From Patescibacteria group bacterium (lineage in GTDB: Bacteria; Patescibacteriota; Patescibacteriia; 2-12-FULL-60-25), in contig JBAYJJ010000001.1 in NCBI GenBank assembly GCA_041665165.1, forward strand, positions 7,210-71,209: a DNA stretch of 64,000 bases. Direction: 5' to 3'. A model generated the notes under the pieces. It was not told the DNA's origin. It searched no databases and worked only from the letters and a program-made list of their open reading frames with translations. The position numbers were made by a program, and so were the translations under genes. Position 1 is the first letter of the stretch, and each line of letters starts with the position of its first letter. This document shows positions 866-28,123 of this stretch, piece by piece.

Positions 866-1951
866 ATGCCCCAGCCCATGTTAATCAAAACGCCCAAAGG
901 AGACAGGAAAATCGGGCCTGGATATCCGACTTTTATAATTGCCGAACTTTCTGGTAACCACCAGCAAAGTTATGAGCGCATACTCAAACTGATCGACGCA
1001 GCGATTGAGGCTGGAGTGGATGCCGTAAAGACCCAAACATTCAAACCTGAAACCATAACCCTGGAATCTGACAAAGAATATTTTCAAGTCAAAGTCAATG
1101 ATGCCTGGGCAGGCCAGACCTTGTTCAGCCTTTATCAAAAAGTCGTCACGCCCTGGGAATGGCAGCCGAAGATGAAAGAATATTGCGAATCACGCGGCGT
1201 CTTGTTTTTCTCCACGCCTTTTGACCCTTCGGCTGTAGATTTTTTGGAAAGCTTGGATGTCCCTTTGTATAAAATCGCATCGTTCGAGACCGGCGACATC
1301 GGGCTTCTGCGCAAAATCGGACAGACAAAAAAGCCAGTCATCATGTCGCGCGGCTTATCGACCGAAGAGGATATCAAGCTCGCGTTAGAGACTTTGAAAC
1401 AGGCCGGTTCTCCCAGCGTCTCGGTTCTGCATTGCGTCAGCTCTTACCCAGCCACGATAGACCAGATGAACATAGCCACCATCCCGGATATTACAAAGCG
1501 TTTTGACGTGGTGTCCGGATTGTCCGATCACTCCTTGGGGACGACCGCGGCCGTGGCCAGTGTTGCGCTCGGGGCCAGCATCATAGAAAAGCATCTGACC
1601 CTGCGCCGGACTGACGGCGGACCAGATGCGGCCTTCTCGCTTGAACCCGAGGAAATGAAAGATTTGGTAAAGACTATTCGCGAGGTTGAATCAGCTATAG
1701 GTGTTCCATCATACACACCAGATAAAAAAGAATCCGAAAATATTATCTTTAGGCGTTCTCTTTTTGTGACCAAAGACATCAAGAAAGGTGAAAAATTCAC
1801 AAACGAGAATGTGCGCTCAATCCGCCCGGGCAATGGCCTGCACCCCAAATTCCTGGACGATGTGCTTGGGAAGTCAGCCACGCAAGACATTGAATATGCG
1901 ACTCCTTTAGCCTGGGAAATGGTGGACAAAGAATCAAATAAAAAAATATGA
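866..1951 (+). CDS. pseI: Pseudaminic acid synthase (NeuB/PseI family, with C-terminal SAF domain)
   Basis: 361 aa. Motifs IAELSGNH, KTQTF, YKIASFE and GLSDHSLG are present. The C-terminal RSLFVTKDIKKGEKFTNENVRSIRPGNGLHPKF closely resembles PseI proteins. pseB and pseC lie in the same locus. Confidence 0.8.
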   Translation: MPQPMLIKTPKGDRKIGPGYPTFIIAELSGNHQQSYERILKLIDAAIEAGVDAVKTQTFKPETITLESDKEYFQVKVNDAWAGQTLFSLYQKVVTPWEWQPKMKEYCESRGVLFFSTPFDPSAVDFLESLDVPLYKIASFETGDIGLLRKIGQTKKPVIMSRGLSTEEDIKLALETLKQAGSPSVSVLHCVSSYPATIDQMNIATIPDITKRFDVVSGLSDHSLGTTAAVASVALGASIIEKHLTLRRTDGGPDAAFSLEPEEMKDLVKTIREVESAIGVPSYTPDKKESENIIFRRSLFVTKDIKKGEKFTNENVRSIRPGNGLHPKFLDDVLGKSATQDIEYATPLAWEMVDKESNKKI

Positions 1952-3569: not shown

Positions 3570-3613
3570 CCCTTGAACTTGTTTGATGGATATGGTAATA
3601 AAAGACAGACATT

Positions 3614-4872: not shown

Positions 4873-4896
4873 AAAACCCGGGATTTGGCACCGGGC
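4871..4896 (-). terminator. Hairpin plus T-run downstream of the GNAT gene
   Basis: CCCGG (4877-4881) pairs with CCGGG (4891-4895). On the minus strand this is followed by TTTTTT (the complement of 4871-4876). It lies directly after the GNAT stop codon at 4900-4902. Confidence 0.45.
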
Positions 4897-4899
4897 AAG

Positions 4900-10938: not shown

Positions 10939-10952
10939 TTTAGAAGGCAAGA

Positions 10953-11954
10953 TTAGACGTTTTTCAGCACAATGTCAACAATTTTCAGGATAGTGCTTTC
11001 AGTGATTTCTTGGTGGCAAGGCAAACCGACGCATACCCGATAGTCAGGCTTAAGCATGTTCTGTCGAATGTCAAAATGGTAAAGCCCTGTTTCAATGCCG
11101 CTGGCCTTCAATTTATCAACTACACGTTTGGCTGAGCTGGGCTTCAGGAACAAAGGCATGGCCCAAGGCAAGACATCATCAACATATAAGGAGTGCACGT
11201 CGAACCGGGCAAAAGCCGACCTTAAAAGTTCATAATTTCTTTTCCGCTTCGCCAGCGCCCCTTCGTTCAAGCCTTGGCGTACGATGTTCAGCGATATCCC
11301 TGGGCAAGGAAACAGCCTGTCATAAATCGCGTAGTTCCTCTCGAGTTCGATGCTGTTTTCATGAGTGGAATTCTTTTCGCATAAGAATCTGCGCAAAAAA
11401 ACTTGTTTGGACAGTTTGTCTTCGTGTATTTTTAATTTATCAGCCACAAATCTTTTCAATGCCCTGTTTCTTGTCCAGATAGCGCCTCCGACCACGCTTG
11501 GGAAAAATTTAGCCAAGCTGAAGATTGAAGCGTCCCCCAGCGTGCCCAACCTCTGGTCTTGATAGTTGCTGAAAGCCGCGTGCGCGCAATCTTCTATGCA
11601 GAACAGATTCTTATCCGAACAGAATGCCTTAATGGCTTTCATGTCCTGCGGAAAGCCCCATTGGTGATAGACCAGGATGCCTTTCACTTTTTTATTGAAA
11701 ACCGTGGTCGGGAAACAATGCTTATGCATGGTCATGTACACCCAATAGCCTATCCATTCCGGGACTAAAACCTGCTCTGACTTATCTTTCAAGCGGCCTA
11801 TGCTCCGATAATATTGGAGCAAAATGGCCAGCGCTGACTTTCCGGAAAATGTATACAAGATATCCTTGTCGAGCCCGGCCCCAAAAATGTTGCCTGACAA
11901 GCGGGGCTTGATGGGTTTTATGGCCACTGGAAAAGGGTTGAAATTTATCCTCAT
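10953..11954 (-). CDS. Divergent DegT-like PLP enzyme (fold type I)
   Basis: 333 aa. ILVYHQWGFPQDMKAIKAF...FCIEDCAHA...GTLGDASIFSLAKFFPSVVGGAIWT follows the DegT pattern (vh..G.p.dm, iEDaAhA, fSf..K). It is shorter than canonical members. Confidence 0.55.
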   Translation of the reverse strand: MRINFNPFPVAIKPIKPRLSGNIFGAGLDKDILYTFSGKSALAILLQYYRSIGRLKDKSEQVLVPEWIGYWVYMTMHKHCFPTTVFNKKVKGILVYHQWGFPQDMKAIKAFCSDKNLFCIEDCAHAAFSNYQDQRLGTLGDASIFSLAKFFPSVVGGAIWTRNRALKRFVADKLKIHEDKLSKQVFLRRFLCEKNSTHENSIELERNYAIYDRLFPCPGISLNIVRQGLNEGALAKRKRNYELLRSAFARFDVHSLYVDDVLPWAMPLFLKPSSAKRVVDKLKASGIETGLYHFDIRQNMLKPDYRVCVGLPCHQEITESTILKIVDIVLKNV

Positions 11955-13075
11955 ATTTGCTCAGGCATCGAAAACAACAAAGCGTTATCAACGAACTGGC
12001 CTGTTTTCTGTTTTAATTCGGCTCTCATGGCACCATTGTCCAAATACCCCATCCATTTTATTTTTGGCAAAAACATGCCCCCGTACCGCTCCTTGAAAAC
12101 GCTGATGGAAAGCTCCTTTGCGCTGGGAACATGATAAAGCTGGGGCGTAAAATACCTCTCGCCGATTTCATAGTATTTGAAACCTTTTTGTTTGTAATAC
12201 AGTATCGCTTCCCATTCCAACAAATGCCGTGGTGAATACTCTTTCTCGAATTCATCCAAATTGATTTGGGACCAGCCAAAGGCCATGCAATCGAATTCGC
12301 CGCAATACAAAAAACTGATTGCCTCGTCTTTCAGGTATGTTACGAACAGCGTGGCCTTGCCCTGGCGCATGCCGTCAAGCATGGAATCCCACGTCGCTTG
12401 CGGCCTGGTCATGCGGCCAGCCGACTTGATGTGCGTATCTTCGAAAATCTTGAAGATCCGATCGATTTGGTCCGCGTTGTTCTCTCTATTGAATACACGG
12501 ACCGCTAAGCCCTTTTTGTAACCGCGCTTTATATGCCTCAAATGGTACTTGCTCACATCCGCGCTCAAGTCCTCGATTTTCTTTTCCAGATCAACAGCGA
12601 TTGTGTTCTCGACCTCATAAATCAGGTTGTAGCGGAGCAGCTCGAACGTCGCGGGCTGGATGACTCCTCCCTCGTGCATAAACAGAGTGTTTAACGGATC
12701 CCAAAAAAAAGAAACTTCACTCGCCTTGTTTTCTTTGGCGAAGGCAAGGATTTCCGAAATAATGTTGTCCAGTATTTTCTTACGGTCTTGCCTGGGCATA
12801 GGCGCTACCACCGGCACGCCGCAAGGAGCATGGCCGAACGAAATAGAATGCACGCCCCTGTCTTTCAGATAACTGGACGCCAAGCTACAGATGGCGAGCG
12901 GCTTGCCTGTATGGTCGATGAACGCGAAAGAAGCGTTTTTTTCCACTTCCTCGAATTTCGAAAAATAGTCCAGCAGAGCCGCGGAATGAAAATGACAAGA
13001 ACCTGGCACGTTCAGCACCCAGGCATCCCACTCTTTTGCCGAAACATCAGAAAAAAGTACTTTTTTATACTCCAT
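11951..13075 (-). CDS. FemAB-like / BioF2-like GNAT-fold acyl(aminoacyl)transferase
   Basis: 374 aa with an ATGA overlap onto the next gene. The layout is W..W....HF.....L, then YHLRHIKRGYKKGL, then ATLFVTYLKDEAISFLYCGE....SPRHLLEWEAILYYKQKGFKYYEIGE. This is typical of the FemX/FemAB fold. Confidence 0.6.
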   Translation of the reverse strand: MEYKKVLFSDVSAKEWDAWVLNVPGSCHFHSAALLDYFSKFEEVEKNASFAFIDHTGKPLAICSLASSYLKDRGVHSISFGHAPCGVPVVAPMPRQDRKKILDNIISEILAFAKENKASEVSFFWDPLNTLFMHEGGVIQPATFELLRYNLIYEVENTIAVDLEKKIEDLSADVSKYHLRHIKRGYKKGLAVRVFNRENNADQIDRIFKIFEDTHIKSAGRMTRPQATWDSMLDGMRQGKATLFVTYLKDEAISFLYCGEFDCMAFGWSQINLDEFEKEYSPRHLLEWEAILYYKQKGFKYYEIGERYFTPQLYHVPSAKELSISVFKERYGGMFLPKIKWMGYLDNGAMRAELKQKTGQFVDNALLFSMPEQI

Positions 13076-13077
13076 AC

Positions 13078-14868
13078 CTACTGCCTTACATTATATACCT
13101 TATAAAAATATGATTCTGGATCTTTGAGCAAGTCCTGCGGTGCTCCTTGTTCGATGATTTTCCCTTCGGATAAAGCCATAATCCTATCCGCGCACAATAC
13201 GGTCGAGAGTCTGTGGGCGATGATGAGCACGGTTATCTTGCCCTTGAGCGACTCGATTACGTTTTGGATCTGCACCTCGGACTCGTTGTCCAATGCGCTC
13301 GTAGCCTCGTCCAAAACAAGCAACTTCGGCTTGCGGGCAAGGATTCTTGCGATAATGATCCTCTGGCGCTGCCCGTTCGAGAGCATGGTCCCGCGTTCGC
13401 CGACCAGCGTCTCGAATTTATTCGGCAAAGTCTGGATGAAATCGTATATATTGGCGCTCTTCGCCGCTTCCTCGATCTCGGCGTCGGAAATGCGCTTGTA
13501 GAAACGGATATTCTCCGCAATGGTGCCGTTCAGCAAAAACATGTCCTGTGATACATAGCCGATGCTGTTGCGCCATTTATCGAGGTTTATTTCGCTCACA
13601 TCGCGGCCATCCAACAGGATTTTTCCGGATGACGGATCAAGCAAACGCAAGGCCAAATCCATAAGCGTTGTCTTGCCCGCACCTGAAGGCCCGACTATGC
13701 CCACTATCTCTCCCCGCTTCACCGAAAAACTGACGCTGTTCAAGATTGGCCTGTCTTGGGCATAGGCAAAACCGACATCATCGAAATCAAAACTTTTCTT
13801 GAAGACAAAATCCGAAGCCGAACCCGTCTTTTCCTTACGTGATTTCATCTCATCTTCCAGCATATTCACTGACTGGAGGTAAGGCGCATACTCATTCAAC
13901 GCCCGATAATTGGATTGCATGGCCTGAAAATAAGTAAAAATGCGCTGGATCAAATAGACAATGGCTGCAAAAGCGCCGAGCTGGAAAGCTGCGGTCTTAT
14001 AATAAAATGCGAACAAGAAACAAATAAAGACAACCCCCATCGGCTGCATCAAGGCATCTCCCAGGGAGCGCTGAAATGCGATCTTGACGTAAGCATTCCG
14101 GTACTGTTCAAAATCATTTTTGCCCACGGTCGCGATTGAGTTGGCCACGGCCATGGTCTTGACAGTTTTCATGCCCATGACATTCTCGTTCAAAAAATGG
14201 GCAATGGTTTTGTTAACGGTTTCCATAATCCGCGAATTTTTGCGTGTTTTTCCGAAACTGGATTTCAAGAACCAGAAAAATACGACCCCGAGAATCAAGG
14301 TCATGGCCGTAATCGGCGCAGAGATGCTGAAAGCGATCAGCACATATACGGCCAAATTAGTGACGATTATGATTAGGGAACTGGTGTTCTCCAGAACCAA
14401 GGTCGCATAACGGACATTGGTCATTAAGACAGTTTCCAAATGACCCAAGCGCTGTTTGAGCAAAAACGACCAATCCGCATCCAAAAACAGTTCAAGCAAG
14501 GCCTGCCGCTTGTGATACTCATAGTTTGCCGAAATTCTGACTTTTATCCAGTTGCTCAAAATCAACATCAATGACCTTAAGATAAACAGACCGGCTATGA
14601 AAAGCAAAAGATATTTGAGGGTAAAACTCAATCCCAAAAGATTAAAAAAGCTTCCGATGAATTGGGTGAGCGCGTCTTGAGCGCCTGGGCCGCCAGAACT
14701 TTTGGTCAACAGCGAGAACAGCGGTATGAGCGAGCCCACGCCCACGCCTTCGAGCAAGCCGCTGAAAAAACCCAAAAAGACCATGACCCCGATACCCCAT
14801 TTGTATTTGCCAAATCCGTTGCTGACAAGCTTGATGAAGCGGACTGCGCGCAGTTGGTTCCAAGACAT
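13078..14868 (-). CDS. ABC exporter, fused permease-ATPase (MsbA/PglK type)
   Basis: The track start at 14892 is a GTG; the ATG at 14868 avoids overlap. It has six N-terminal hydrophobic segments, Walker A GPSGAGKTT, signature LSNGQRQR and Walker B LLVLDEATSALD. Confidence 0.85.
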   Translation of the reverse strand: MSWNQLRAVRFIKLVSNGFGKYKWGIGVMVFLGFFSGLLEGVGVGSLIPLFSLLTKSSGGPGAQDALTQFIGSFFNLLGLSFTLKYLLLFIAGLFILRSLMLILSNWIKVRISANYEYHKRQALLELFLDADWSFLLKQRLGHLETVLMTNVRYATLVLENTSSLIIIVTNLAVYVLIAFSISAPITAMTLILGVVFFWFLKSSFGKTRKNSRIMETVNKTIAHFLNENVMGMKTVKTMAVANSIATVGKNDFEQYRNAYVKIAFQRSLGDALMQPMGVVFICFLFAFYYKTAAFQLGAFAAIVYLIQRIFTYFQAMQSNYRALNEYAPYLQSVNMLEDEMKSRKEKTGSASDFVFKKSFDFDDVGFAYAQDRPILNSVSFSVKRGEIVGIVGPSGAGKTTLMDLALRLLDPSSGKILLDGRDVSEINLDKWRNSIGYVSQDMFLLNGTIAENIRFYKRISDAEIEEAAKSANIYDFIQTLPNKFETLVGERGTMLSNGQRQRIIIARILARKPKLLVLDEATSALDNESEVQIQNVIESLKGKITVLIIAHRLSTVLCADRIMALSEGKIIEQGAPQDLLKDPESYFYKVYNVRQ

Positions 14869-14872
14869 AGGT

Positions 14873-15124
14873 TTACCATTTATTGATTTCACTCACGACT
14901 TTGCTCTTGACCTTCAGGTATGATTTCACGGCATTTTTTTCGGCTTCGGGTGAAACCAGCCTCAAGATTTCTTTGCCCAAAATACGGTACTGACGTCCGA
15001 TTTTATTGGCTCTGATCAGGCCCTTTTTCAACAACCTCTTGATTGTACTATTGCTGATGTTAAGAATCGCCTGTGCTTCGCCAGTCGTATAGATAGCCAT
15101 GGGCTTGATTTCTTCTTTAACCAT
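14873..15124 (-). CDS. Small excisionase/MerR-type HTH DNA-binding protein
   Basis: The track start at 15172 is a TTG inside the predicted -35 element; ATGs occur at 15124 and 15100. YTTGEAQAILNISNSTIKRLLKKGLIRANKIGRQYRI is a classic HTH_17-type motif. Confidence 0.6.
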   Translation of the reverse strand: MVKEEIKPMAIYTTGEAQAILNISNSTIKRLLKKGLIRANKIGRQYRILGKEILRLVSPEAEKNAVKSYLKVKSKVVSEINKW

Positions 15125-15228: not shown

Positions 15229-16740
15229 ATGTCTGAACTACAAGGCAAAAAAATCCTCCTTTTACAGCAACGCAGATGGGCCACGAATATCGGCCATTTT
15301 TTAGCCATAAAACTACAGGCCCAAGGTTGCAGGCTCGCTGCGCTGACACTAAAAAGATCTGCCCATGAATTCATCCTTTCGCAAACCGAGGTCCGTTACG
15401 ATTTGGTGATAGGCAACGACGAAATCATGGATGACCCAAAAAAATATCTTGGTAACGACAACATTACCCTTAAGCAGGTCTGTGACGATTTAGGGATTGA
15501 CTCGGTTTGGCCGATAGCAAATGCGCTCAGGAACCATGTGCGCACATACCGCGATAAATTTTATTATGGCTACATGCAGAACGTATCCGATGAAGGAATC
15601 GCGGATTATGTTAAAGCTGTTTATAAATATACTGTATTGATATTTAATGAGTTCAGCCCTGATATAATAATCTCGCCGAACTTCGTATCCCTGCCCCATA
15701 TAATGCTCAGGCTGTATGCTGCAAAAAAAGGAATCAAGATGTTCGGACTGACGGATTCGAAAGTCAAGCACGTTAATATTTTCACTTACGGTGAATACGA
15801 CGACCGAGGTCCTTTTTTCGACCGTTTAGATGACCTGAACAACGGAAAAGCTACGAGCGACAACTTAGAAAAAGCTATCTCATACATCTCGGACTTCAGG
15901 CAACAATTCAGACAACCTACCTACGCTGTCAATCCGGATGCCAAAAAAACCTTGTACCGCGCGATCCGCAACGAACTGAGCCCTTATAAACAGATTTGGT
16001 CATGGTATACCAAGCCGCAAAAAAATTATCTCAAAAGTACTGGCATAACTTTGGATTACCGCCCCCCACGCATTATATTGCGCGATTTTTACTATAGTAA
16101 ATACTACCGGCATGCTGCAAAAAAATTCCCTTACGAGAAAATTGAAAACATCGATAAATGTATTTATTTCCCACTCCAGTTCCAGCCAGAAATTTCAATA
16201 GAAGTCATGGCGCCTTATTTCTGCAATCAGCTGGAAGTAGCGAGGCAGATAGCTATGTCCCTCCCGGACGATTACACTCTGATGGTGAAAGAACACCCGG
16301 CAATGGTAGGCTTAAGACCGCCTTCATCCATGATAAAACTCTCCAGGACACCAAACGTCAAAGTCATTGATTATCATGTCCCGAGCGATGTCGCCCTGAA
16401 AAAAGCCGACTTAGTCATAAGCCCAAACAGCACGGCGCTTGTTGAGGCCTCGTTCTACCATAAGCCAGCAATCCAATTAGGTAATCTTGGCACAACACAG
16501 ATGCTGCCGAATGTAGTCAGACATACGGACATGACTACCCTCTCAGGCACCATTAAACGGCTTTTGACGACCGACTTCAAGACCGAAGATTACGAGATGC
16601 GGTTAAGAAATTATATTGCAGCGGCTTATGATACGGGTTTTTCCATCGATTACACTGCTATCTGGGAAGAGGGCAACAAAAAAGAACTGGAAACGCTGCT
16701 GAATATCTACATAGAGGAAGTTAGGAAAAATATAAAATGA
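15229..16740 (+). CDS. KpsS/KpsC-like capsule-synthesis-family transferase (ulosonic acid transferase family)
   Basis: 503 aa. GKKILLLQQRRWATNIGHFLAIKL at the N-terminus and IYFPLQFQPEISI....LMVKEHPAMVG match the FPLQ...D/E and KEHP signatures of the capsule polysaccharide biosynthesis (KpsS/LpsZ) family. Confidence 0.55.
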   Translation: MSELQGKKILLLQQRRWATNIGHFLAIKLQAQGCRLAALTLKRSAHEFILSQTEVRYDLVIGNDEIMDDPKKYLGNDNITLKQVCDDLGIDSVWPIANALRNHVRTYRDKFYYGYMQNVSDEGIADYVKAVYKYTVLIFNEFSPDIIISPNFVSLPHIMLRLYAAKKGIKMFGLTDSKVKHVNIFTYGEYDDRGPFFDRLDDLNNGKATSDNLEKAISYISDFRQQFRQPTYAVNPDAKKTLYRAIRNELSPYKQIWSWYTKPQKNYLKSTGITLDYRPPRIILRDFYYSKYYRHAAKKFPYEKIENIDKCIYFPLQFQPEISIEVMAPYFCNQLEVARQIAMSLPDDYTLMVKEHPAMVGLRPPSSMIKLSRTPNVKVIDYHVPSDVALKKADLVISPNSTALVEASFYHKPAIQLGNLGTTQMLPNVVRHTDMTTLSGTIKRLLTTDFKTEDYEMRLRNYIAAAYDTGFSIDYTAIWEEGNKKELETLLNIYIEEVRKNIK

Positions 16741-16747: not shown

Positions 16748-18646
16748 ATGATGAACCCTGAACAGATACTGAGTTGCCCAAACTGCAAAAATAATTTCAC
16801 ACAGAACACATGCCGAAATTGCGGTTTTATTCTGGATCAAGTCAACGGCGGCATCTATCAGATGGCTAAAAACAAGAACTTCTATTTCCGCGAGAAAATG
16901 CCCCAACCGATCTTGGCGGAAATAAATAAGTCCGAGGATATATTCGCGGCGACTTATGCGGCATTCAAAAAAACCTTGCCTTGGAAGTACGACTTTTATG
17001 CGCTCGAATCAAACCGCGGGGCCGGCACGATTTTGAGCAAATTAGGTCCTGATTCAATCGTATTGGATTACGGAGCAGGCTGGGGCAACTTGGCAAAATT
17101 CGCCTCTTTATACTGCAAGCATGTTTTCGCCATGGACCTGACTTTGGAAAGCCTAGAGTTCTGCGACAAGACGTCGAAGCATGAGAACATGACATTCATC
17201 CACGGCGGAGACTACAAATATCTTCCTTTCAAGGATAAGTCGCTTGATGCCGTATTTTTGAATGGTGTTTTGGAATGGATACCGGAATATGACCTTTCAG
17301 CGCCCCCGCGCACGATTCAACTCAATTTTCTGAAAGAAATCCGTCGGGCGTTGAAAGATGATGGCCAAGTATTCATCGGCATCGAAAATCGTATCGGATT
17401 CCCCTATTTTTTCGGAAAGTCAGACGAACACTCTAAAATCAGGTTCGGCACTCTCATGCCCCGTGTTCTGGCGGACTTAGTCTCCAGGATAAAATTCCAC
17501 AAACCCTACCGTACATTTACTTATGGGCCTCGCGGCTATAAGCATCTTTTGAAAGAAGCTGGCTTTGAAGACAACGCCATAAATGTCCCCGCGTCTGACT
17601 ACAGGGAAATCATACAGATATTTTTACCTGAAGCTAAAAAAAGCTCAGTCTCGGCTCCGGAAGGTGACCTTAATTGGAAAAGGAAGGTCAAAAACCTTGC
17701 CCGGCGCTTATTCTACCCCTCATTTTTATCCAAATACTTTGCCCACGCGTTCTTGATAACTTCGAACTGGCACGAACCAAACCTGCTTAAAGATGTCTTG
17801 CTTATGAAAGGAGAGCATCTTAAAGATGCCAAAAAAGTGGTCAATAACAATCTCAAAGGCACAATCTTGGTTGAAACGGAAAATTATATCTATAAAATCC
17901 CAGCTCACTCAAAAGCCAGCGCAAATCTTAAAACCGAAATCAACACAATCGAAGAACTCGCAAAATCAGGCTGGATAAGCCCTTATTTGCCGAAGATCGA
18001 GCTTGCATCCATCAACAGCACGAACATCCAAATAATCACTAAGGAAAAACAGGTTAAAAAAGATAAAGGATATTTCGTGGAGATAAAAAAGTTCCTTGAC
18101 CTAAAAAACCGTGACGCTCAATATAAATCGCTTTCAGACGCAATCCAAGACCTGGATCTGCAAAATGTGAGGGGATATCTAAGACTGAACGAAAAAAGCG
18201 ATTTGATTGATCGGCTCATAGCCAAATCCACTGAAATAAAAACTCCAGTCGCGTTCGCTCATGGAGACCTCCATACTAACAATATTTTGGCGACCGCTGG
18301 AGGCATCAAAATCATAGACTGGGAATTTTATGCTAAAAAGGCGCCTACGGAATTCGATTTGATCAGCTTGGTCCTATATGAGGAGACCTTTGTCAAAAAA
18401 ACTCCTTATCACGATTTGATGGAGCGGTTCTTAAACCAGACATTTGTCCCGTCGCCTGAAAATAATTTCTCTGAACTTTTTCCAATCATCAAGGCAGCGC
18501 ATCCCCTGGTGCTGGTTGGACATTTCCTATATCAACTCAGCCAAGCACTAGGAAGATATGAAAACGTGGCGTTCGTACCTTATCAAAAAGATCAAAAATA
18601 TAAGAAAACCTTGGAAATCATCGAAAAATACATGGAATCCATATGA
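16748..18646 (+). CDS. Fusion protein: Zn-ribbon + class I SAM methyltransferase + APH/choline-kinase-like kinase
   Basis: 632 aa. Contains CPNCKNNFTQNTCRNCGF, the methyltransferase motif I VLDYGAGWGNL with LDAVFLNGVLEWIP, and a C-terminal kinase catalytic loop HGDLHTNNIL...IKIIDWEF. Confidence 0.7.
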   Translation: MMNPEQILSCPNCKNNFTQNTCRNCGFILDQVNGGIYQMAKNKNFYFREKMPQPILAEINKSEDIFAATYAAFKKTLPWKYDFYALESNRGAGTILSKLGPDSIVLDYGAGWGNLAKFASLYCKHVFAMDLTLESLEFCDKTSKHENMTFIHGGDYKYLPFKDKSLDAVFLNGVLEWIPEYDLSAPPRTIQLNFLKEIRRALKDDGQVFIGIENRIGFPYFFGKSDEHSKIRFGTLMPRVLADLVSRIKFHKPYRTFTYGPRGYKHLLKEAGFEDNAINVPASDYREIIQIFLPEAKKSSVSAPEGDLNWKRKVKNLARRLFYPSFLSKYFAHAFLITSNWHEPNLLKDVLLMKGEHLKDAKKVVNNNLKGTILVETENYIYKIPAHSKASANLKTEINTIEELAKSGWISPYLPKIELASINSTNIQIITKEKQVKKDKGYFVEIKKFLDLKNRDAQYKSLSDAIQDLDLQNVRGYLRLNEKSDLIDRLIAKSTEIKTPVAFAHGDLHTNNILATAGGIKIIDWEFYAKKAPTEFDLISLVLYEETFVKKTPYHDLMERFLNQTFVPSPENNFSELFPIIKAAHPLVLVGHFLYQLSQALGRYENVAFVPYQKDQKYKKTLEIIEKYMESI

Positions 18647-21333
18647 TTAATTCTATCCTGCTGATAAGGCCTTTCGCAGCGGAGAAAAAACAATTTCCTT
18701 TAGGCTTGCTGTATGTAGGCACTGCCTTAAAGCGCAAAGGCTATCAAGTCCAGATAATCGATTTGCAGGACGAACCCGAGCGTGAGAACGAAATCATCGA
18801 AACACTCAAGTCCCGGCCAGACATGCTGCTCGGCATAAGCGCACTAGCCCCCCAATATCATTGGGTAAAGCGTTTTACGCTCCGCCTGAAACAGATCATC
18901 CCACAGACCCCCGTGGTCATCGGCGGCCATATCGCAATCTGTCGCAAACAACTCCTGGAAAATACTGGGATTGATTATGTGTGCGTAGGCGAAGGCGAAG
19001 AAATGCTCCCCGAGCTGATTGAGGCGCTGAACAATGGTTCTTCGCTCGAAAATATCACAGGAATGGCTTTTAGAGGCAAGGATAGTGCGATGCTGAAAAC
19101 CGCTTGGCGACCACAGATAAAGGATTTCGGATTGCCGGATTACGACCTGATCAATGTCGAAAAATATATAATCCATCCGGATGAGGACAGTTTTTTCCAT
19201 AAATCAACCGAATACCAGAAACAAGCCACTCCGCAAGATAAGTCGTGCGTGATCATGTTCTCAAGAGGCTGTATCGGGCATTGCGGCTTCTGCTACAGGC
19301 ATCATGCTGGCTATCGGCAGCTCACGATTGAGGAAAGCTGGGAGAACCTGATGATCCTTTACCATAAGTATGGGGTCAGATATTTCAGGATCGATGATGA
19401 GCTCTTCACGAATAATCCGGAATGGCTAAAGGCGATTTGCGAAAAAATCCGCGAATCCGGGCTTGGCATAATGTTCAGGATCACCGGGTTGCGTGTTGAT
19501 ACTGTTGACGATGAACGCCTAGAAATACTCAAACAATCCGGCTGTATCGCTATCAATTATGGCATCGAATCCCTGTCCCAAACCACGCTGAACACTATGC
19601 TTAAAGGCGTGTCAGTCCAGCAAAACGAGGACGCTTTGCGCAAGACCCTGGCTCATGGCATGGCGACCATGGCTTATATCATTTGGGGTTACCAGGGAGA
19701 AAACAAAAAAACCATCCTGGAAACCATCGATACCCTGATTTCTTTAGGGCTCCCACCCCACCTGGTATCTATCTTTTATCTTGTCGCCCTGCCTGGCACT
19801 ACCATGTACGCCTATGCTTTGCGCACCAAAAAAATCACGGACGAAGATGCTTACTTGGATTCTTTGAACATACTCATGCAGAAGTGGGGCGGATTCCATA
19901 AACGATATCTCATCAACTATTCCGAGTTGTCGCGCAAAGAACTCAAAAAATACGAAGAGATGCTGATGCTCATCCTTAAGCTGCGCGTTCGTTTCGGAAA
20001 GAATAGTATCTTGTCGAAAATCGTACGCCAAACAGTTCCGAGCCTGCCAGCCAGCCTCTTTCTGGGCCTCACGAACGCCACATACTCGATTTTCAGGAAA
20101 ACTAAATCTTTTTTCGCCCCTAAAAAACCAAGAGCACAAAAAAAACCTGGTTCGCCTCTCTGTGTCTTATGCCTGTCGTTCAGGACCCCTCCTGCCGTGC
20201 GGCCGCAAGCGATATTGATCGGCAAAATGATACCCGAGTGGATCAGGCAAGGTGTCCAGCCTGTTATCGTCAACTACGACAACAATGGCGACTGGGGCAT
20301 TGACGTGCCGATATACAGCGTCCCCTTTTTCAGGATCAACCGTTTCGCAGCCAAGCTGCCTTTTGTGCGCGAAACTTTGGAATACATATATTTGAGGCGC
20401 CTGTGCCGAAAGCTCAAGCCCATAATCCATGAACATGAAATAGATCTGATTTTTTCCTTTGCCAATCCACAAGCCAGCAACGCGCTTGGAGCAATGTTGA
20501 AAAAACAGACCCGTTTGCCGTTCGTAGCCCATTTCAGCGACCCTTGGTATGACATGCCTCTTGAAAAAAAATCCTGGGTTTCCAACCGGCTGGTGCGGGC
20601 TTGGGAAAAATATGTCATCAAGAACAGTGATCGCGTAATTTTTGTTAACCCTATTTTGCGCGATTTGGTCATGAAAAAATATCCGACGGCTTGGGCTGAA
20701 AAAACCAGCATCATACCCCACTGCTTCGATCCTAAGCTATATGCCAAGGTTGAAAAACCAGCCGGTCGTCCTTTCCTCTTCAGCCATCTTGGGGCTTTTT
20801 ATGAGCAGCGTCGGCCAGAGCCTTTGCTGGAAGTCATGTCTAGAGTCGAAAAATCCGGCTTGAATAACTTCAAACTCGAACTCGTGGGCGCAGATCAGGC
20901 CTATACAGGCTTCGCGACCAAAGAGTTGAGCGGTTCTATCCAAAGCTTCGGACTTGCAGACATGGTTGAGGTCAAGCCGGCCGTTAACTATATCGAAAGC
21001 CTGAGGTTGATGTCCGAAGCCGACTGTTTGCTGGTCATGGACGCCAACTTGGCCTCAAGCCCGTTCTTGCCGTCCAAGCTGATTGATTATGCGGGTAGCG
21101 GCACAATGATCGTGGGCTTTACGCCACAGGGCAGCCCGACCCAGCACTTCCTGGAGAAGCTTGGTTACAGATCTTTCAACTATCAACAGATCGACCAAGC
21201 AGCCCAATATCTGGCTGACCTAGTCCAGACAAAAAAACAAATCATTCCGAACCGCGAATACCTGGAAGCTTTCGACGTGAAGCAAACCACCTCTGGATTG
21301 ATTGATGTTTTCAAACAAGCGCAAAAAAGATAG
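18643..21333 (+). CDS. Fusion protein: B12-binding radical SAM enzyme + GT-B (GT4-like) glycosyltransferase
   Basis: 896 aa. The N-terminal B12-binding-like domain is LLIRPF...GLLYVGTAL...VVIGGH. The radical SAM cluster motif is SRGCIGHCGFCY (CxxxCxxC). The C-terminal ~390 aa (DLIFSFANPQASN...FLPSKLIDYAGSG) is GT-B-like. Confidence 0.7.
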   Translation: MINSILLIRPFAAEKKQFPLGLLYVGTALKRKGYQVQIIDLQDEPERENEIIETLKSRPDMLLGISALAPQYHWVKRFTLRLKQIIPQTPVVIGGHIAICRKQLLENTGIDYVCVGEGEEMLPELIEALNNGSSLENITGMAFRGKDSAMLKTAWRPQIKDFGLPDYDLINVEKYIIHPDEDSFFHKSTEYQKQATPQDKSCVIMFSRGCIGHCGFCYRHHAGYRQLTIEESWENLMILYHKYGVRYFRIDDELFTNNPEWLKAICEKIRESGLGIMFRITGLRVDTVDDERLEILKQSGCIAINYGIESLSQTTLNTMLKGVSVQQNEDALRKTLAHGMATMAYIIWGYQGENKKTILETIDTLISLGLPPHLVSIFYLVALPGTTMYAYALRTKKITDEDAYLDSLNILMQKWGGFHKRYLINYSELSRKELKKYEEMLMLILKLRVRFGKNSILSKIVRQTVPSLPASLFLGLTNATYSIFRKTKSFFAPKKPRAQKKPGSPLCVLCLSFRTPPAVRPQAILIGKMIPEWIRQGVQPVIVNYDNNGDWGIDVPIYSVPFFRINRFAAKLPFVRETLEYIYLRRLCRKLKPIIHEHEIDLIFSFANPQASNALGAMLKKQTRLPFVAHFSDPWYDMPLEKKSWVSNRLVRAWEKYVIKNSDRVIFVNPILRDLVMKKYPTAWAEKTSIIPHCFDPKLYAKVEKPAGRPFLFSHLGAFYEQRRPEPLLEVMSRVEKSGLNNFKLELVGADQAYTGFATKELSGSIQSFGLADMVEVKPAVNYIESLRLMSEADCLLVMDANLASSPFLPSKLIDYAGSGTMIVGFTPQGSPTQHFLEKLGYRSFNYQQIDQAAQYLADLVQTKKQIIPNREYLEAFDVKQTTSGLIDVFKQAQKR

Positions 21334-21342: not shown

Positions 21343-22440
21343 ATGAAAGTCGCAATCATAATCGGCACTAGGCCTGAAATAATCAAAATGTCCCCCTTGA
21401 TTAGGACCTGCACCGAAAAAAGGCTTGATTTTTTTATTGTCCATACCGGCCAGCACTATGATTATGAGCTTGACGGAAAAATGTTCAAGGACCTTGGCCT
21501 GCCCAAGCCAAAATACAATCTGAACGTCGGCGGCAAGCCATACCGCATCCAAAAAAGCCTGATGATCAGGGAGATGGCTGATATTTTTAAACGCGAAGGA
21601 GTTGATGTAGTAGTGGTCCAAGGCGATACCAACAGCGTGCTGGCCGGGACCCTGGCCGGCCTCAAGACCAATTGCAGGGTCGCCCACCACGAGGCTGGTT
21701 TACGCAGCCACGATCTGGGTATGCTGGAAGAAGTGAATCGCATTATCACGGATAACGTGGCTGATTATCTATTCGCTCCGACCAAGACAGCGCTGAAGAA
21801 CCTCGAGCAAGAGGGTTTGAAAAAGCATTCTTATTTGACAGGCAACACGATTACTGACGCGGTTATCCAGAACTCAGAAATTGCCCGAAAAAAATCCATG
21901 ATCTTGCGCAAACTGAAACTGAAAAAATCAAGCTTTGTCTTGGTCACGACCCATCGTGCCGAAAACGTCGATGACAAAAATAAGCTCAGTAATATTTTGG
22001 CTGGATTGGACGCAGTCTCCAAAAAACTAAAACTCCCGGTCATTCTCCCCTTGCACCCGCGCACAAAATCCAATATCGAAAAATTCAGCCTCAAAAAACC
22101 CAAATCCATCAAATTCATCAAGCCTTTAGGCTATTTGGACTTCCTTAATCTGGAAGCTAATGCCAAATTGATAATCACCGACTCCGGCGGCATCCAGGAA
22201 GAGGCTAGTATCCTGAAAATACCCTGCGTGACCATCCGCGAGAATACTGAACGGCCTGAAACCATAAAAGCCGGGATAAACTTATTGGCCGGCACTGACC
22301 CGAAAAAAATCCTGGCATGTTCTGAACGGATCATAAAAAACAAAAAAAAATGGGGCAACTTGTACGGCAATGGCGATGCAGCTGAAAAAATAATGGACCA
22401 TATCATAAGGTTGGAAGCAGAATATGGCAATTTATATTAG
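21343..22440 (+). CDS. wecB: UDP-N-acetylglucosamine 2-epimerase
   Basis: 365 aa. Motifs are MKVAIIIGTRPEIIKMSPLI, VVVQGDTNS, HHEAGLRS and TDSGGIQEE. Whether it is hydrolysing or non-hydrolysing cannot be decided by eye. Confidence 0.85.
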   Translation: MKVAIIIGTRPEIIKMSPLIRTCTEKRLDFFIVHTGQHYDYELDGKMFKDLGLPKPKYNLNVGGKPYRIQKSLMIREMADIFKREGVDVVVVQGDTNSVLAGTLAGLKTNCRVAHHEAGLRSHDLGMLEEVNRIITDNVADYLFAPTKTALKNLEQEGLKKHSYLTGNTITDAVIQNSEIARKKSMILRKLKLKKSSFVLVTTHRAENVDDKNKLSNILAGLDAVSKKLKLPVILPLHPRTKSNIEKFSLKKPKSIKFIKPLGYLDFLNLEANAKLIITDSGGIQEEASILKIPCVTIRENTERPETIKAGINLLAGTDPKKILACSERIIKNKKKWGNLYGNGDAAEKIMDHIIRLEAEYGNLY

Positions 22441-23146
22441 GCCGTCAAAAACATTCTTTTTCTCTTTCCTGACGAAAGAGATCCAAACCGTAGGCAACGG
22501 CATAGGCTTGGACGCTGCCTGCGCAAACATGAAAAACAGGCACATGTTCAGGACTGCAAGTTATTACGGGGTTGATATCAATCTTGAACTCGTCAAAACC
22601 GGTCTAAACAAATATCAAGATTCCTCGACTTTTGGCATCTTGGCTGACATGTCCAAGCTCAATCCTATCCCCGAAGGCAGCGTTGATCTGATTGTTTCAA
22701 GCAATACTTTGTATACGATACCTGATGCGCAAAGGATTGATGCTATCCAACATTTGATTCGCATCACTGCTCCATCAGGCAAGCTGATATTAGAAGTTCC
22801 GATAGCAAATGATTTTGTGACTATACAAAAATTGACGAACGAATACTTTGAGCAAGTCCAAATAGTCCATTACCAAAACTTCCTGAGCTTAGCTTATGAA
22901 AAGATCTTTGAAAGAAACGGGAACTTAGGATCTCACCCGATTGCCGGATCCAAACCCTTTCTAGTACTGTCTTGGCTGATTAGCCGAGCCGAGTATCTGA
23001 CCAGGTATTTCAGATTCTTGAATAAGCATGTCGTTTTTATTTGCACGCACAAAAAATCACAAATCAAAAATGAGTTTGACTTAAAAAACCTGCCTGTATT
23101 GTCTGATAAAATCTACGTCCTCCCTGGGGTCAAAGCCACTTCCTGA
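22424..23146 (+). CDS. Class I SAM-dependent methyltransferase (tentative)
   Basis: 240 aa with a 17-nt overlap onto wecB. GIGLDAACAN (motif I-like) and VDLIVSSNTLYTIPDAQRIDAIQHLIRITAPSGKLILEVP (motifs II-III) are present. Confidence 0.5.
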   Translation: MAIYIRPSKTFFFSFLTKEIQTVGNGIGLDAACANMKNRHMFRTASYYGVDINLELVKTGLNKYQDSSTFGILADMSKLNPIPEGSVDLIVSSNTLYTIPDAQRIDAIQHLIRITAPSGKLILEVPIANDFVTIQKLTNEYFEQVQIVHYQNFLSLAYEKIFERNGNLGSHPIAGSKPFLVLSWLISRAEYLTRYFRFLNKHVVFICTHKKSQIKNEFDLKNLPVLSDKIYVLPGVKATS

Positions 23147-26039
23147 GCCAAGCCTTCAATTTTTCTGGTGGCTTGATATTGCTTTGGCGCAAACTGCGGC
23201 TCAAACGTTTGAAAGATGTCACTAAGACGATTGATACCGGACTTACGACACTTGCCCAAACTCTCCAAAAACCTTTGGCACGTCCCAAAGAATCAAGGCT
23301 AAGCTTATTTTTGCTTAAAACGTATTCGCCCTGTTTTAAGGCGCTTAAAATCGCGCCAGGATTTAAGTTTGCAGCGTTGACCTTAATTGACGGTCCGCCC
23401 AAATGTTCCTTGCGGTGCATATCCAAACCAGCAAAAGCTTTGAGCTCTGGATCGCTCTTGCGCAAAGTATCCAAGAGCTTGATGGCCTTGGTACGCGGCG
23501 CGTATTTGCCGTCATAATGCGCGTTCCAGATTTCTATGCCATCAAGCAATGCGCCGAATTGTCCTGTCGTAAATTTGTTTCTGTGCGGATGAGCTAGGAC
23601 CACAAGCGCTCCGTCTTTTTTCGCTGTCTCAATCATCTCAAGCGGCGACAGGTTGAGATCCAAATCAGTAACATTGATGAGCATCACGTGCTGGCCATTG
23701 CATGGCACCTCAAAACCAGGGATGAAAACAAAATCCGGATCGCTCTGCTCATGACAGCGACGAATATACTCCTGGACTTTGTCTTGAGCAAAATTCTCAA
23801 TATGCTCAGTCAAACATACAAAAGATACTCCTCGGGACTTAAAAATAGACTTTAGTTGCTCCAGATCCAGTTTCGCATCATAAGAATAGGCTGAATGCAC
23901 ATGCATCACGCCTTTATATCCAGTCTCCGTAGATTTTCCCCGCTGCATCACATCAAACGGTTCAACCAAAGCAGGCTTTAGATCAACCCAAGAAAAAATA
24001 TCACCTTTTGATTCGCTTCTGAAAAAATCAAAAATAAAATCTTTCAAAGAAACCCACTTTGACGGTTGGGGTAAGCCGCTTATTTTTCCACCAAACCAAA
24101 CAGACGTCAGATGCTTTACGTCAGCCAACAAGTGTCGCGAGGTAACTCCCTTCCTATATCCGGACGCGACAACATTGTGTCCTTGAGCCATTCCTAGGAG
24201 CAAAGCCGGAAAATCAACTCCAGAATGGATAGCCAAGGGCAAAGACCCCCAGAAACGCCCATTGATTTCCATGAGCACAAGCTTGCCAAATGCATCTCTC
24301 TTGAACTCGACCATGGCCACACCCGTCCAATCCAGAGCTTTGAGCAGATCAAGCGATGCTTTTCTCATATCTGCCGGCATTTCAATACTCTCACGCACAC
24401 AGCTCGCACCACCATAAGGCGAAATAGATCGGACGCGGCGATGAGCGAATTCTGACTTGACTTCTCCGTTCTGCATAAGGAAAAAGGCTCCGAATTCCTC
24501 GCCTTGGACATATCTCTGGATCAGCGGCCACTCCCCTGTCTTGTCTGCGATCTCTTGGGCTTTTTCTCCCAATTCCTGGGCATTTTGGATAGTGATTGTC
24601 CTACCCGAGGCTCCGCGACCGTTTTTCCACTGACAACTGTGTCGAGGTTTCAGTATGCAAGGAAAATTGACCTCAACTCCCGCAGCTTCTGCTTGTTCGC
24701 GGGATTCTGGCTTTTTTGTCCCAGGAATCGCAATCCCAAGTCTTTGAGCAAGCTCAAGCGTCTTAGACTTATCGAACGCGACCTCAACGCTTTCCGGCGT
24801 GGGCAATATTTTTTCTAAACCTGTAAATAGGTTTCTGTTTTTTGAAAGTGGCAAAAATGTAGCGTCGCTGCACGATAGAACCATCATATTCCCGCCATTG
24901 TCATCGTAGACTTGTTTGATTGCCTTGATAAAACCTTCCGGATCTGTGATTGGCGACGGATAAACAAAGGATTGCGTGCAATATCTTGAATGCAAGGCCA
25001 TGCCTGTTTTTCTTTCTGCTCCGCAAATGACTCTTATGTCTTTCGACCCCAGTGACCTCACAATAGCTAATGCGCTTTGCACACTTCCATCCAAAACCAT
25101 GACAGACTGTCTTGCTGTCGCGAGTTGACCAATTTCGCCCATCACGACCTGATCCATCAAACCCTGACGTTTAAGCTCAGCCACGCGCGCAAATATTTGG
25201 TCCAAGCCGCGCAATAATTCATCCGGGTTTGATGCCAAATTGAACGGATGGAACCAAAGATGAAAAACTTTTTTCTCTTTGACAGCTCGATCTATTCCAA
25301 GCAGGACTTTAGAAACCCGAAATGAAACCGGAAGATATTTCGCCCAGCCGCGTGCATGCGGATAAAAATAACTGCCTGGAATTGACGTCAAGCCGTCTTG
25401 TTGTTTTGGCGATACTGATCGGACTGGAAACACAAGGTAGTTGTCCAAAACGTGCGCAAGTCTTTTTAAGATGCCGGACAACCCCGCGTACCAATTCTCA
25501 TCAGGGGCGCGAAAGACCTCAATCCCCTGCTCTTTCAAGATCGAAGTATGAGCTACATGATTTTTTGGATAAACAAAAGACCTCAACTCCAAGCCTCTAC
25601 TTGAGGCCAAGTTCTTACACGCGATAAGCTCTGACCTGAACCATTCAGGGGTACAGGCAGGATCATCAGCAATGACATGCGAGAAAGTGTGGCACCCGAT
25701 TTCTTGTTTGACCGGACAGGAAAGGATCCGATCGATGATATCTTTGCCATACCAAATCGGATCGGATTGGATGTTTGAATGCGGGTCAATATCAAACCAA
25801 TTCGCTGGTGCAAAAATTTCAGGATGATTGTTGCATGAATCCAAAAATAAATGCCCGACCGTTGCCCAAGTGGCCTTGATGTCGTATTTGACGAACAGTT
25901 CCAGCAAACGAGTGATGGCTTGTCTCGTGTTCAGATAATCGTTTTTCAGATGGTCTGCGCCGCGCGTGCCCCAGGCTAATTCAAAATCAAGAGACAAAAC
26001 AAATGCTCCTTTTTTCAGCTCCAAATCGCGGCTTTGCAT
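23130..26039 (-). CDS. Three-domain protein: CE4 polysaccharide deacetylase + ATP-grasp + PHP phosphoesterase
   Basis: 969 aa. The N-terminal LSLDFELAWG...ATWATVGHLF...CHTFSH is NodB/CE4-like. The middle ILKPRHS...LIQRYVQGEEFGAFF...VAMVEFK...LMEINGRFWGS is ATP-grasp. The C-terminal VMHVHSAYSYD...LTEHIE...LAHPHR is PHP-like. Confidence 0.7.
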   Translation of the reverse strand: MQSRDLELKKGAFVLSLDFELAWGTRGADHLKNDYLNTRQAITRLLELFVKYDIKATWATVGHLFLDSCNNHPEIFAPANWFDIDPHSNIQSDPIWYGKDIIDRILSCPVKQEIGCHTFSHVIADDPACTPEWFRSELIACKNLASSRGLELRSFVYPKNHVAHTSILKEQGIEVFRAPDENWYAGLSGILKRLAHVLDNYLVFPVRSVSPKQQDGLTSIPGSYFYPHARGWAKYLPVSFRVSKVLLGIDRAVKEKKVFHLWFHPFNLASNPDELLRGLDQIFARVAELKRQGLMDQVVMGEIGQLATARQSVMVLDGSVQSALAIVRSLGSKDIRVICGAERKTGMALHSRYCTQSFVYPSPITDPEGFIKAIKQVYDDNGGNMMVLSCSDATFLPLSKNRNLFTGLEKILPTPESVEVAFDKSKTLELAQRLGIAIPGTKKPESREQAEAAGVEVNFPCILKPRHSCQWKNGRGASGRTITIQNAQELGEKAQEIADKTGEWPLIQRYVQGEEFGAFFLMQNGEVKSEFAHRRVRSISPYGGASCVRESIEMPADMRKASLDLLKALDWTGVAMVEFKRDAFGKLVLMEINGRFWGSLPLAIHSGVDFPALLLGMAQGHNVVASGYRKGVTSRHLLADVKHLTSVWFGGKISGLPQPSKWVSLKDFIFDFFRSESKGDIFSWVDLKPALVEPFDVMQRGKSTETGYKGVMHVHSAYSYDAKLDLEQLKSIFKSRGVSFVCLTEHIENFAQDKVQEYIRRCHEQSDPDFVFIPGFEVPCNGQHVMLINVTDLDLNLSPLEMIETAKKDGALVVLAHPHRNKFTTGQFGALLDGIEIWNAHYDGKYAPRTKAIKLLDTLRKSDPELKAFAGLDMHRKEHLGGPSIKVNAANLNPGAILSALKQGEYVLSKNKLSLDSLGRAKGFWRVWASVVSPVSIVLVTSFKRLSRSLRQSNIKPPEKLKAWLRKWL

Positions 26040-28122: not shown

Positions 28123-28123
28123 A

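Follow-up and report, generated by a model that had tools for sequence, protein, structure and literature searches.

The 64,000-nucleotide stretch analysed here (positions 7,210 to 71,209 of the forward strand of contig JBAYJJ010000001.1, assembly GCA_041665165.1, Patescibacteria group bacterium), called the window below, carries a gene in which a radical S-adenosylmethionine (rSAM) enzyme is joined to a glycosyltransferase (GT). The product is a genuine two-module protein, both modules of which are intact and under purifying selection. We put at roughly 0.55 the probability of the whole reading proposed here, namely that the GT half adds an N-acetylmannosamine (ManNAc)-type sugar to a lipid-linked glycan capped with pseudaminic acid (Pse), and that the tethered rSAM half tailors this glycan by radical chemistry. 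The fusion as such is a Rosetta-stone event specific to one lineage, and the conserved, facultative class-B rSAM enzyme in a Pse/ManNAc cassette is the more interesting part of the finding. The gene and its parts, with positions in the window and residues of the predicted protein, are as follows.

18643..21333, plus strand: rSAM-GT fusion gene, a single uninterrupted open reading frame (ORF) for 896 amino acids, with a class-B-type radical SAM module and a GT4-like GT-B module
18691..19017, plus strand: B12-binding-type Rossmann domain, residues 17-125 (PF02310, E 4e-20, 72 bits against a cutoff of 32.1)
19255..19734, plus strand: radical SAM core, residues 205-364 (PF04055, E 1e-17)
19270..19293, plus strand: CxxxCxxC [4Fe-4S] motif, CIGHCGFC, residues 210-217, with C210, C214 and C217
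20116..20157, plus strand: Lys/Pro-rich flexible linker, residues 492-505, 14 residues of low predicted local distance difference test score (pLDDT)
20158..21330, plus strand: GT4-like GT-B module, residues 506-896
21070..21090, plus strand: PSKLIDY motif, residues 810-816, in place of the EX7E helix of canonical GT4 enzymes

The limits of the modules (rSAM 1-491, linker 492-505, GT 506-896) were taken from AlphaFold2 (AF2) models and from the ends of standalone homologs. In the GT half the Pfam model Glyco_transf_4 matched residues 531-697 (E 4e-14, 53.4 bits against a cutoff of 28.5), while Glycos_transf_1 at residues 705-827 reached 22.2 bits and stayed under its cutoff of 26.4. A preliminary description of this DNA, made from the letters alone, had proposed one ORF joining a class-B rSAM enzyme to a GT-B glycosyltransferase, and this was borne out by the 896-residue frame, by the Pfam domains in both halves and by the recurrence of the architecture in five assemblies. 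The N-terminal part of about 470 residues, to which it had assigned a B12-type domain and an intact CxxxCxxC cluster, came near to the modelled 1-491, with CIGHCGFC at its place. The C-terminal GT4-like two-Rossmann module of about 390 residues had also been placed with nearly the right limits, and its GT-B fold was confirmed, but its EX7E motif is atypical and the module has to be called divergent GT4-like. The fusion gene and the gene before it (16748..18646) overlap by 4 nt, at the ATG of the former and the stop of the latter, and the downstream gene begins 10 bases past the fusion stop.

The same fused architecture was found in five assemblies beyond the window, derived from different samples, at 59-100% identity. 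An identical protein is encoded on the European Nucleotide Archive contig ERZ27249449 k141_526182, a 95%-identical one (protein P0001, locus L009) on CAZPAP010000037.1, a 60%-identical one (P0002) in Candidatus Uhrbacteria GCA_016222815.1 and on a Logan contig, and a 59%-identical one (P0003) on another Logan contig. Between the window protein and P0002 the rSAM halves share 67%, the linkers 14% and the GT halves 53% identity. In comparison with the fused homologs of about 60% identity the linker was 14-21% identical, its length changed in-frame, and the indels were confined to it, while all of the cluster cysteines and all of the family-invariant GT residues were retained. Since the domains are thus selected and the linker is free to vary, this pattern of conservation indicates that the fusion is not an artefact. 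An error of assembly or sequencing, or a pseudogene wrongly joining two genes, might be suspected because distant relatives have two genes; however, the ORF is continuous in the window as well as in all of the five assemblies, and the indels of the linker keep the frame. The probability of such an error is negligible, and the recurrence of the same ORF across independent assemblies effectively refutes it. The concern that related genomes could contain two separate genes was settled in two ways, the genes being fused in the close relatives and split in the distant ones.

The fusion architecture is rare and lineage-specific. Among the 150 best matches of an exhaustive HMMER search against 1.84 billion 50%-identity representatives just one 50%-identity cluster (P0002) covered both halves, and a local check of 381 retrieved proteins found both halves in P0001-P0003 only. 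The fusion did not occur in any of the 80 metagenomic GT-family loci, in a survey that did not extend to fusions of other rSAM families with other GT families. The single spanning cluster and the 80 metagenomic loci are in line with the earlier hint that the architecture is unusual. The fusion may be just the loss of a stop codon between coupled genes.

The rSAM half is, as judged from its sequence and its modelled structure, a class-B-type radical SAM enzyme. None of the three cysteines C210, C214 and C217 varied among 61 homologs. In the full-length AF2 run MAFFT placed the rows of standalone rSAM proteins onto the GT half, which made that model unreliable for the rSAM half; this half was modelled alone with the 61-homolog alignment, and the model reached a pLDDT of 95 and a predicted TM-score (pTM) of 0.91. 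Its nearest solved folds were TsrM, OxsB, MgmA, AprD4, CysS and TokK (Foldseek E 4e-22 to 7e-14, identity 15-19%), with E 4e-22 for the TsrM match. The N-terminal domain keeps the SxL (S66-A67-L68) and GG (G94-G95) elements of cobalamin-binding Rossmann domains and lacks the His ligand of DxHxxG, a histidine that is usually absent in class B. Residues 4-142 match the B12 domain of TsrM in sequence, while the match to AprD4, a cobalamin-free sugar diol dehydratase, is limited to the core. Cobalamin-dependent C-methylation is, by family precedent, the leading but unproven guess for the reaction; the sugar C-methylation suggested in the preliminary description came down to an analogy, since no NCBIfam equivalog was reached and AprD4 is among the closest folds. 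An Rfam scan of the window detected no RNA families, hence no cobalamin riboswitch, and genes for the transport or salvage of cobalamin were not seen in its 64 kb.

The rSAM clade is small, with about 30 clusters above 40% identity, and of the loci recovered from GTDB species genomes just 5 among the best 80 had more than 40% identity. Its members are fused to an (alpha/alpha)6 GH127/GH88-like domain in P0004, P0005 and P0007 (in P0006 by similarity), and to a NodB polysaccharide deacetylase in P0010, P0015 and P0017. Since the rSAM genes abut GT genes in many relatives and since members of the clade are fused to NodB or to (alpha/alpha)6 domains, the tie of this enzyme to sugar chemistry is stronger than it appeared from the window sequence alone.

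The GT half is, by sequence and model, a divergent GT4-like enzyme rather than a textbook GT4, although its donor-binding scaffold is largely present. Its pLDDT in the full-length AF2 model was above 90, and it superposed on the retaining GT4 enzymes MshA (Foldseek 3.6e-15, target-normalised TM-score 0.75), GlgM, BshA, PglA, WaaG and PimB'. The family to which it belongs is large and consists of standalone proteins some 400 residues long (386 matches, the 120 listed being 42-75% identical), and the matches with a named source are from Patescibacteria. The motifs PPxVRPQAILIGK, FSFxNPQxSN, FSDPW, IPHC, GAFYxxRNPE and SPFLPSKxxDY are invariant in the family, as are the residues R520, K528, D633, E655, H693, R723, D800, K812 and D815. 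Some members are fused to a kinase-like domain (P0124) or to a formyltransferase domain (P0207).

When the alignment of this family was compared by local hhalign with a locally built 47-sequence alignment of canonical GT4 enzymes (profile against profile), the match had a probability of 99.6% and an E value of 1e-23. In this comparison the invariant R723 of IGAFYxxRNPE aligned with the diphosphate-binding Lys of GRxxxxKG, P808 occupied the position of the first Glu of EX7E and D815 that of the second, so that the motif as such is not present. Simpler searches gave less: the family alignment gave no significant match to one canonical GT4 sequence (hhalign probability 0.2), a search of the PDB with the single GT sequence returned nothing relevant, and a profile search of the PDB gave spurious designed PPR-repeat matches besides weak ones to SPS and GlgM. 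The residues for binding a nucleotide sugar, a lack of which would have spoken against the earlier assignment, are not missing as far as the aligned R723 and D815 indicate, but the motif they belong to is atypical. Since WecB is the next gene after the GT in 31 of the 37 loci of a GT-centred census, we infer from sequence that UDP-ManNAc is the probable donor.

The fusion gene is the third in a plus-strand operon with the order p503, Zn-ribbon/methyltransferase/kinase-like fusion, rSAM-GT fusion, WecB and class I methyltransferase. Together with the divergent transporter gene, its neighbours are the following.

15229..16740, plus strand: p503, first gene of the operon, a Capsule_synth / BFO_1060-like glycosyltransferase and candidate CMP-pseudaminic-acid transferase (PMC5420450)
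16748..18646, plus strand: Zn-ribbon + class I methyltransferase + choline-kinase/APH-like fusion, in the slot held by a pyruvyl transferase in most relatives
21343..22440, plus strand: WecB, non-hydrolysing UDP-GlcNAc 2-epimerase, for the supply of UDP-ManNAc (TIGR00236, 361 bits against a cutoff of 210)
22424..23146, plus strand: class I methyltransferase MT240, the conserved last gene of the cassette
13078..14892, minus strand: ABC exporter (ABC_membrane + ABC_tran), divergent and conserved beside the cassette, a candidate flippase of the lipid-linked glycan

The p503 protein matched the Pfam model Capsule_synth weakly (21 bits against a cutoff of 20), and its C-terminal HP motif (H356-P357) was invariant in 32 homologs. 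It is about 503 residues long and has a PLQxQPE motif; homologs are found in L001-L012 and L093-L135. The protein upstream of the fusion has 632 residues, begins with a Trm112-like Zn-ribbon and overlaps the rSAM-GT gene; it may add a phospho-substituent such as phosphocholine. The idea that it arose as a domain swap of the methyltransferase-(alpha/alpha)6 proteins of related loci was rejected, because the methyltransferase parts are not detectably related.

The cassette with the order p503, pyruvyl transferase (or methyltransferase-kinase), rSAM, GT, WecB and methyltransferase recurs in Uhrbacteria, Kuenenbacteria and on many Patescibacteria contigs. Outside the fused lineage the rSAM and GT genes are separate, and they abut or overlap with gaps of -26 to +17 nt (by crude start calls). 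Such separate neighbours were seen in L004, L012, L006 and L091-L143; in L004 the rSAM gene lies at 2415-3914 and the GT gene at 3924-5165, in L012 at 10001-11479 and 11485-12690. In the GT-centred census p503 was found upstream in 19 of 28 loci, and the rSAM gene directly upstream of the GT in 9 of 38, a frequency that is biased upward because these loci were chosen through the GT. GTs that have an rSAM partner are interspersed among those that have none, the GTs of L101 (with rSAM) and L105 (without) being 76% identical. A separate clade of rSAM-partnered GTs was considered and was not supported (permutation p ~0.06, driven by near-duplicates). From the 9 of 38 loci and the interleaved GTs it follows that p503, GT and WecB are the core of the cassette and that the rSAM enzyme is an optional accessory. 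For the same reasons the GT does not seem to require the rSAM modification, and the earlier idea of one protein that modifies the sugar it transfers was weakened accordingly.

Where the rSAM gene is lacking, the (alpha/alpha)6 domain is joined to a class I methyltransferase instead, and a kinase-like gene for about 255 residues often lies directly upstream of the GT. The (alpha/alpha)6 toroid of about 400 residues appears as a mobile module of the cassettes (L006 8001-10685, L007 8001-10664, L100 4355-6520, L012 6648-8852); it has weak similarity to GH127, GH88, pectate lyases and C5-epimerases, is fused to rSAM or to Zn-ribbon + class I methyltransferase, and has no copy in the window. Further radical SAM genes occur in the glycan clusters of relatives (L007/L008 1-1012 and 15572-16987, L004 10455-11276). 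They encode two B12-binding rSAM proteins and a small rSAM/SPASM protein beside a CMP-nonulosonic acid (NulO) synthetase, and radical chemistry may be widespread in glycan tailoring of the Candidate Phyla Radiation (CPR). The contigs of L009 (CAZPAP010000037.1) and L011 (CAYPPF010000017.1) are titled 'uncultured Gammaproteobacteria bacterium' although they carry the Patescibacteria-type cassette with 95-98% and 46% identity to the window, respectively; the taxonomy of these bins is probably wrong. Distant GT relatives of 30-37% identity (L144-L168), many of them from soil metagenomes, have the genes in the order WecB, GT, p503-like gene. The occurrence of the trio in this other order suggests that the GT / WecB / NulO-transferase-like module is older and broader than Patescibacteria.

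The following mechanism is proposed. The fusion would have arisen by loss of the stop codon between two abutting genes of a conserved Patescibacteria glycan cassette, genes that were probably translationally coupled, as suggested by their spacing of -26 to +17 nt. The cassette would assemble the outer part of a lipid-linked glycan: WecB would provide UDP-ManNAc, the GT half would transfer a ManNAc-type residue to the lipid-linked oligosaccharide at the cytoplasmic face, and the p503 protein would cap this residue with pseudaminic acid. Class I methyltransferases and the kinase-like domain or pyruvyl transferase would decorate the glycan, the ABC exporter would flip it in its lipid-linked form, and a Wzy_C protein would pass it to the final acceptor. 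On its flexible tether of 14 residues the rSAM half could carry out an optional tailoring of the same part of the glycan through a 5'-deoxyadenosyl radical, most likely a cobalamin-dependent methylation of an unactivated carbon, AprD4-like, HpnJ-like or OxsB-like chemistry being possible as well. Since rSAM was gained and lost with little change of the GT, action after the transfer, or at a position which the GT tolerates, is favoured over the making of an obligatory modified donor.

Several results weigh against this proposal. The rSAM half stayed under every NCBIfam equivalog cutoff, the best being BchE with 155 against 481 bits, followed by HpnJ (94/578), MJ_0865 (88/360), KedN5 (50/700) and AprD4 (40/500); HpnR, PhpK, the MgmA-type and the TsrM-type were among the other named models that it did not reach. 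AprD4, which works without cobalamin, is among its best structural matches. In the GT half the first Glu of EX7E is missing and Glycos_transf_1 is below the Pfam cutoff, and the type of donor is for these reasons unproven. The p503 protein reached 35 bits with the NCBIfam model of the BFO_1060 family, the cutoff of which is 200. In L010, L011 and L013 the rSAM clade is present with this GT not nearby, the rSAM gene being followed in L010 by an FkbM methyltransferase and a GT2 and accompanied in L011 by a pyruvyl transferase only. Finally, the commonest upstream neighbour of the rSAM gene is the pyruvyl transferase, so that the true substrate of rSAM is possibly set by that enzyme and not by the GT.

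The strongest competitor, which we hold to be a serious possibility if somewhat short of an even chance, is that the joining of the two modules is neutral for their function: after the loss of a stop codon the modules would work independently, without channeling and possibly on different residues, and the architecture would report a shared pathway only. The single fused 50%-identity cluster and the split genes of the relatives with their gaps of -26 to +17 nt agree with this, as does the linker, which is short, unconserved and begins near the end of the standalone rSAM proteins. The GT family can do without rSAM, and other fusions abound in these loci (kinase-GT, formyltransferase-GT, methyltransferase-(alpha/alpha)6, rSAM-NodB). 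Against neutrality, the fusion was kept down to about 60% identity with its frame preserved through the indels of the linker, and fusions of the GT with the tailoring enzyme encoded upstream, whatever its type, have occurred repeatedly, suggesting a benefit from proximity. It is less probable, and on the present data rather unlikely, that the rSAM half modifies the sugar by a radical reaction other than methylation, possibly without cobalamin; this reaction might be a dehydration or deoxygenation like that of AprD4, an epimerisation, an oxidation, a ring rearrangement of the HpnJ/OxsB kind or a C-C coupling as in TunB. AprD4 gave the top target-normalised TM-score (0.71), OxsB too was among the top matches, and HpnJ aligned over almost its whole length, though with 94 bits. 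The combination of GT, NodB deacetylase and B12-type rSAM resembles the HpnI/HpnK/HpnJ trio, class I methyltransferases are plentiful in the cassette already, and we know of no cobalamin synthesis in Patescibacteria, which was counted on this side. However, the N-terminal domain is far over the Pfam B12-binding cutoff with SxL and GG kept, and its sequence match extends over the cobalamin-binding domain of TsrM while that to AprD4 covers the core only. The characterised class-B rSAM enzymes are mostly methylases, which was counted against a non-methylating reaction, and the joining of the (alpha/alpha)6 partner to a class I methyltransferase elsewhere is a weak hint of an equivalent methylating role.

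A polysaccharide pyruvyl transferase as the true partner of rSAM, with a pyruvate ketal or a pyruvylated ManNAc as the target and the adjacency of the GT as secondary, appears improbable. In its favour, PS_pyruv_trans lies immediately upstream in most loci of the rSAM clade, often overlapping the rSAM start, and L011 has this pair only; the joint presence of WecB and a pyruvyl transferase resembling CsaB is reminiscent of the secondary cell-wall polymers of Gram-positive bacteria, with their 4,6-pyruvyl-ManNAc. On the other hand, the window and L009 have no pyruvyl transferase, and there rSAM was kept and fused to the GT; L010, L093 and L096 likewise lack the pyruvyl transferase.

The operon lies in a larger glycan island of the window, in which genes for the synthesis of pseudaminic acid were recognised.

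7623-8753, minus strand: pseC, above the NCBIfam equivalog cutoff
8755-9933, minus strand: TylC3-like C-methyltransferase (Methyltransf_23 + Methyltransf_14 C-terminal domain), between pseC and pseB
9937-10950, minus strand: pseB, above the NCBIfam equivalog cutoff
866..1951, plus strand: pseI, pseudaminic acid synthase (TIGR03586, 458 bits against a cutoff of 340)

The TylC3-like gene suggests a C-methylated or otherwise branched Pse precursor that would be made by conventional, non-radical chemistry. The island contains in addition aminotransferases, ATP-grasp and FemAB-like proteins, a PIG-L deacetylase, many GT4 genes and two Wzy_C proteins. The latter are O-antigen ligase / PglL-like membrane proteins (34149-36545 and 46142-47647, both on the minus strand) in what is presumably a monoderm CPR bacterium, and may serve the glycan of the window as O-oligosaccharyltransferases or polymer ligases. 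A 969-residue protein of unusual architecture (23130-26039, minus strand) combines an ATP-grasp of the Ter-operon type with a PHP phosphoesterase. Two tandem double-GT4 proteins of 710 and 744 residues (26041-28173 and 28124-30358, minus strand) have two Glycos_transf_1 stretches each, and their ORFs overlap by about 50 nt. Two long ORFs had no Pfam match, one for 1291 residues (36644-40519, minus strand) and one for 653 residues (47733-49694, plus strand). The second lies where the GC content is locally high (62% at 48001-50000, about 48% elsewhere), and the protein after it has four metal-binding repeats of the MopE type (50551-52422, minus strand).

To our knowledge the tailoring of sugars by class-B radical SAM enzymes is known only from a few antibiotic pathways, such as that of gentamicin. 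In the window an enzyme of this class forms part of a conserved surface-glycan cassette in uncultivated, ultra-small bacteria. The three independent fusions, with the GT, the NodB deacetylase and the (alpha/alpha)6 domain, give an orphan rSAM clade a concrete context, a lipid-linked glycan containing ManNAc and Pse. We suggest tentatively, and with distinctly less confidence than for the reading as a whole, that this Patescibacteria-restricted clade of class-B rSAM enzymes performs radical tailoring, by C-methylation or skeletal rearrangement of the ManNAc-type residue, during assembly on the lipid carrier and tethered to the GT which installs that residue. If this holds, it would be the first radical SAM step in the assembly of bacterial surface glycans outside antibiotic pathways, and a previously unseen sugar would be expected on the surface of CPR cells, a surface that probably mediates attachment to hosts. 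With the fused protein on one side and its split orthologs on the other, nature offers two matching constructs for the question whether the tether aids the hand-over of substrate. The analysis also defines a large, previously undescribed GT4-like family, marked by PPxVRPQAILIGK, FSDPW and PSKxxDY and almost always followed by WecB.

Searches of the literature returned nothing specific on the fusion, the rSAM clade, the cassette, rSAM enzymes in Pse or surface-glycan clusters, or the use of cobalamin in CPR bacteria. The nearest characterised systems compare as follows. TsrM (6wte), OxsB (5ul4), MgmA (9ccb), CysS (9n1d), TokK (7kdx) and AprD4 (6fd2) share with the rSAM half the Rossmann domain, the partial TIM barrel and CxxxCxxC. 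They differ from the window protein in having 15-19% identity, unrelated substrates (Trp, nucleotide, protein Gln, carbapenem, paromamine) and no GT domain, and AprD4 differs from the others of this group in that it does not use cobalamin. MshA, BshA, PglA, WaaG, PimB' and GlgM resemble the GT half in the GT-B fold (target-normalised TM-score ~0.75), in the basic residue of GRxxxxKG and in the second acidic residue of EX7E; the GT half differs from them by 12-17% identity, by Pro in place of the first EX7E Glu and Asp in place of the second, by motifs of its own and by a C-terminal domain below the Pfam cutoff.

In the synthesis of the hopanoid cyclitol ether HpnI, a GT, adds an N-acetylhexosamine, the deacetylase HpnK acts on it, and the B12-type rSAM enzyme HpnJ remodels the sugar. 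The partners of the rSAM clade form the same kind of set (GT, deacetylase, B12-type rSAM), while the Hpn enzymes belong to other GT and deacetylase families, their substrate is a hopanoid, and the HpnJ model gave 94 against 578 bits.

GenK and GenD1, from the gentamicin pathway, are radical SAM C-methyltransferases that depend on cobalamin (PMC4340712, PMC4039129, PMC5819394). By analogy, the rSAM half may be compared with them as a class-B enzyme that would modify an unactivated carbon of a sugar or aminosugar, in a pathway with GTs and class I methyltransferases. GenK and GenD1, however, are standalone enzymes of an actinomycete antibiotic pathway with free pseudo-oligosaccharide substrates, whereas the window protein is fused to a GT within a Patescibacteria surface-glycan cassette, showed no close sequence relationship to them and reached no NCBIfam equivalog.

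A parallel to the cassette as a whole is the experimentally studied, general protein O-glycosylation cluster of Tannerella forsythia, with pseBCFHGI, GtfS, GtfI, wecB/wecC and MtfJOY (PMC5420450, PMC6120980). There GtfI, a GT-B enzyme, adds N-acetylmannosaminuronic acid (ManNAcA) made via WecB and WecC, and GtfS, an enzyme of the BFO_1060 family, is the candidate transferase of Pse or legionaminic acid onto ManNAcA (PMC5420450, PMC6120980). This cluster belongs to Bacteroidota, uses a Wzx flippase and not an ABC exporter, includes wecC, and is free of radical SAM, pyruvyl transferase and domain fusions. Nevertheless, it shares a gene logic with the window, where the counterparts are Pse biosynthesis, WecB, a GT-B enzyme probably for a ManNAc-type residue, a candidate NulO transferase with an HP motif, several methyltransferases, a candidate flippase and a presumed lipid-linked route.

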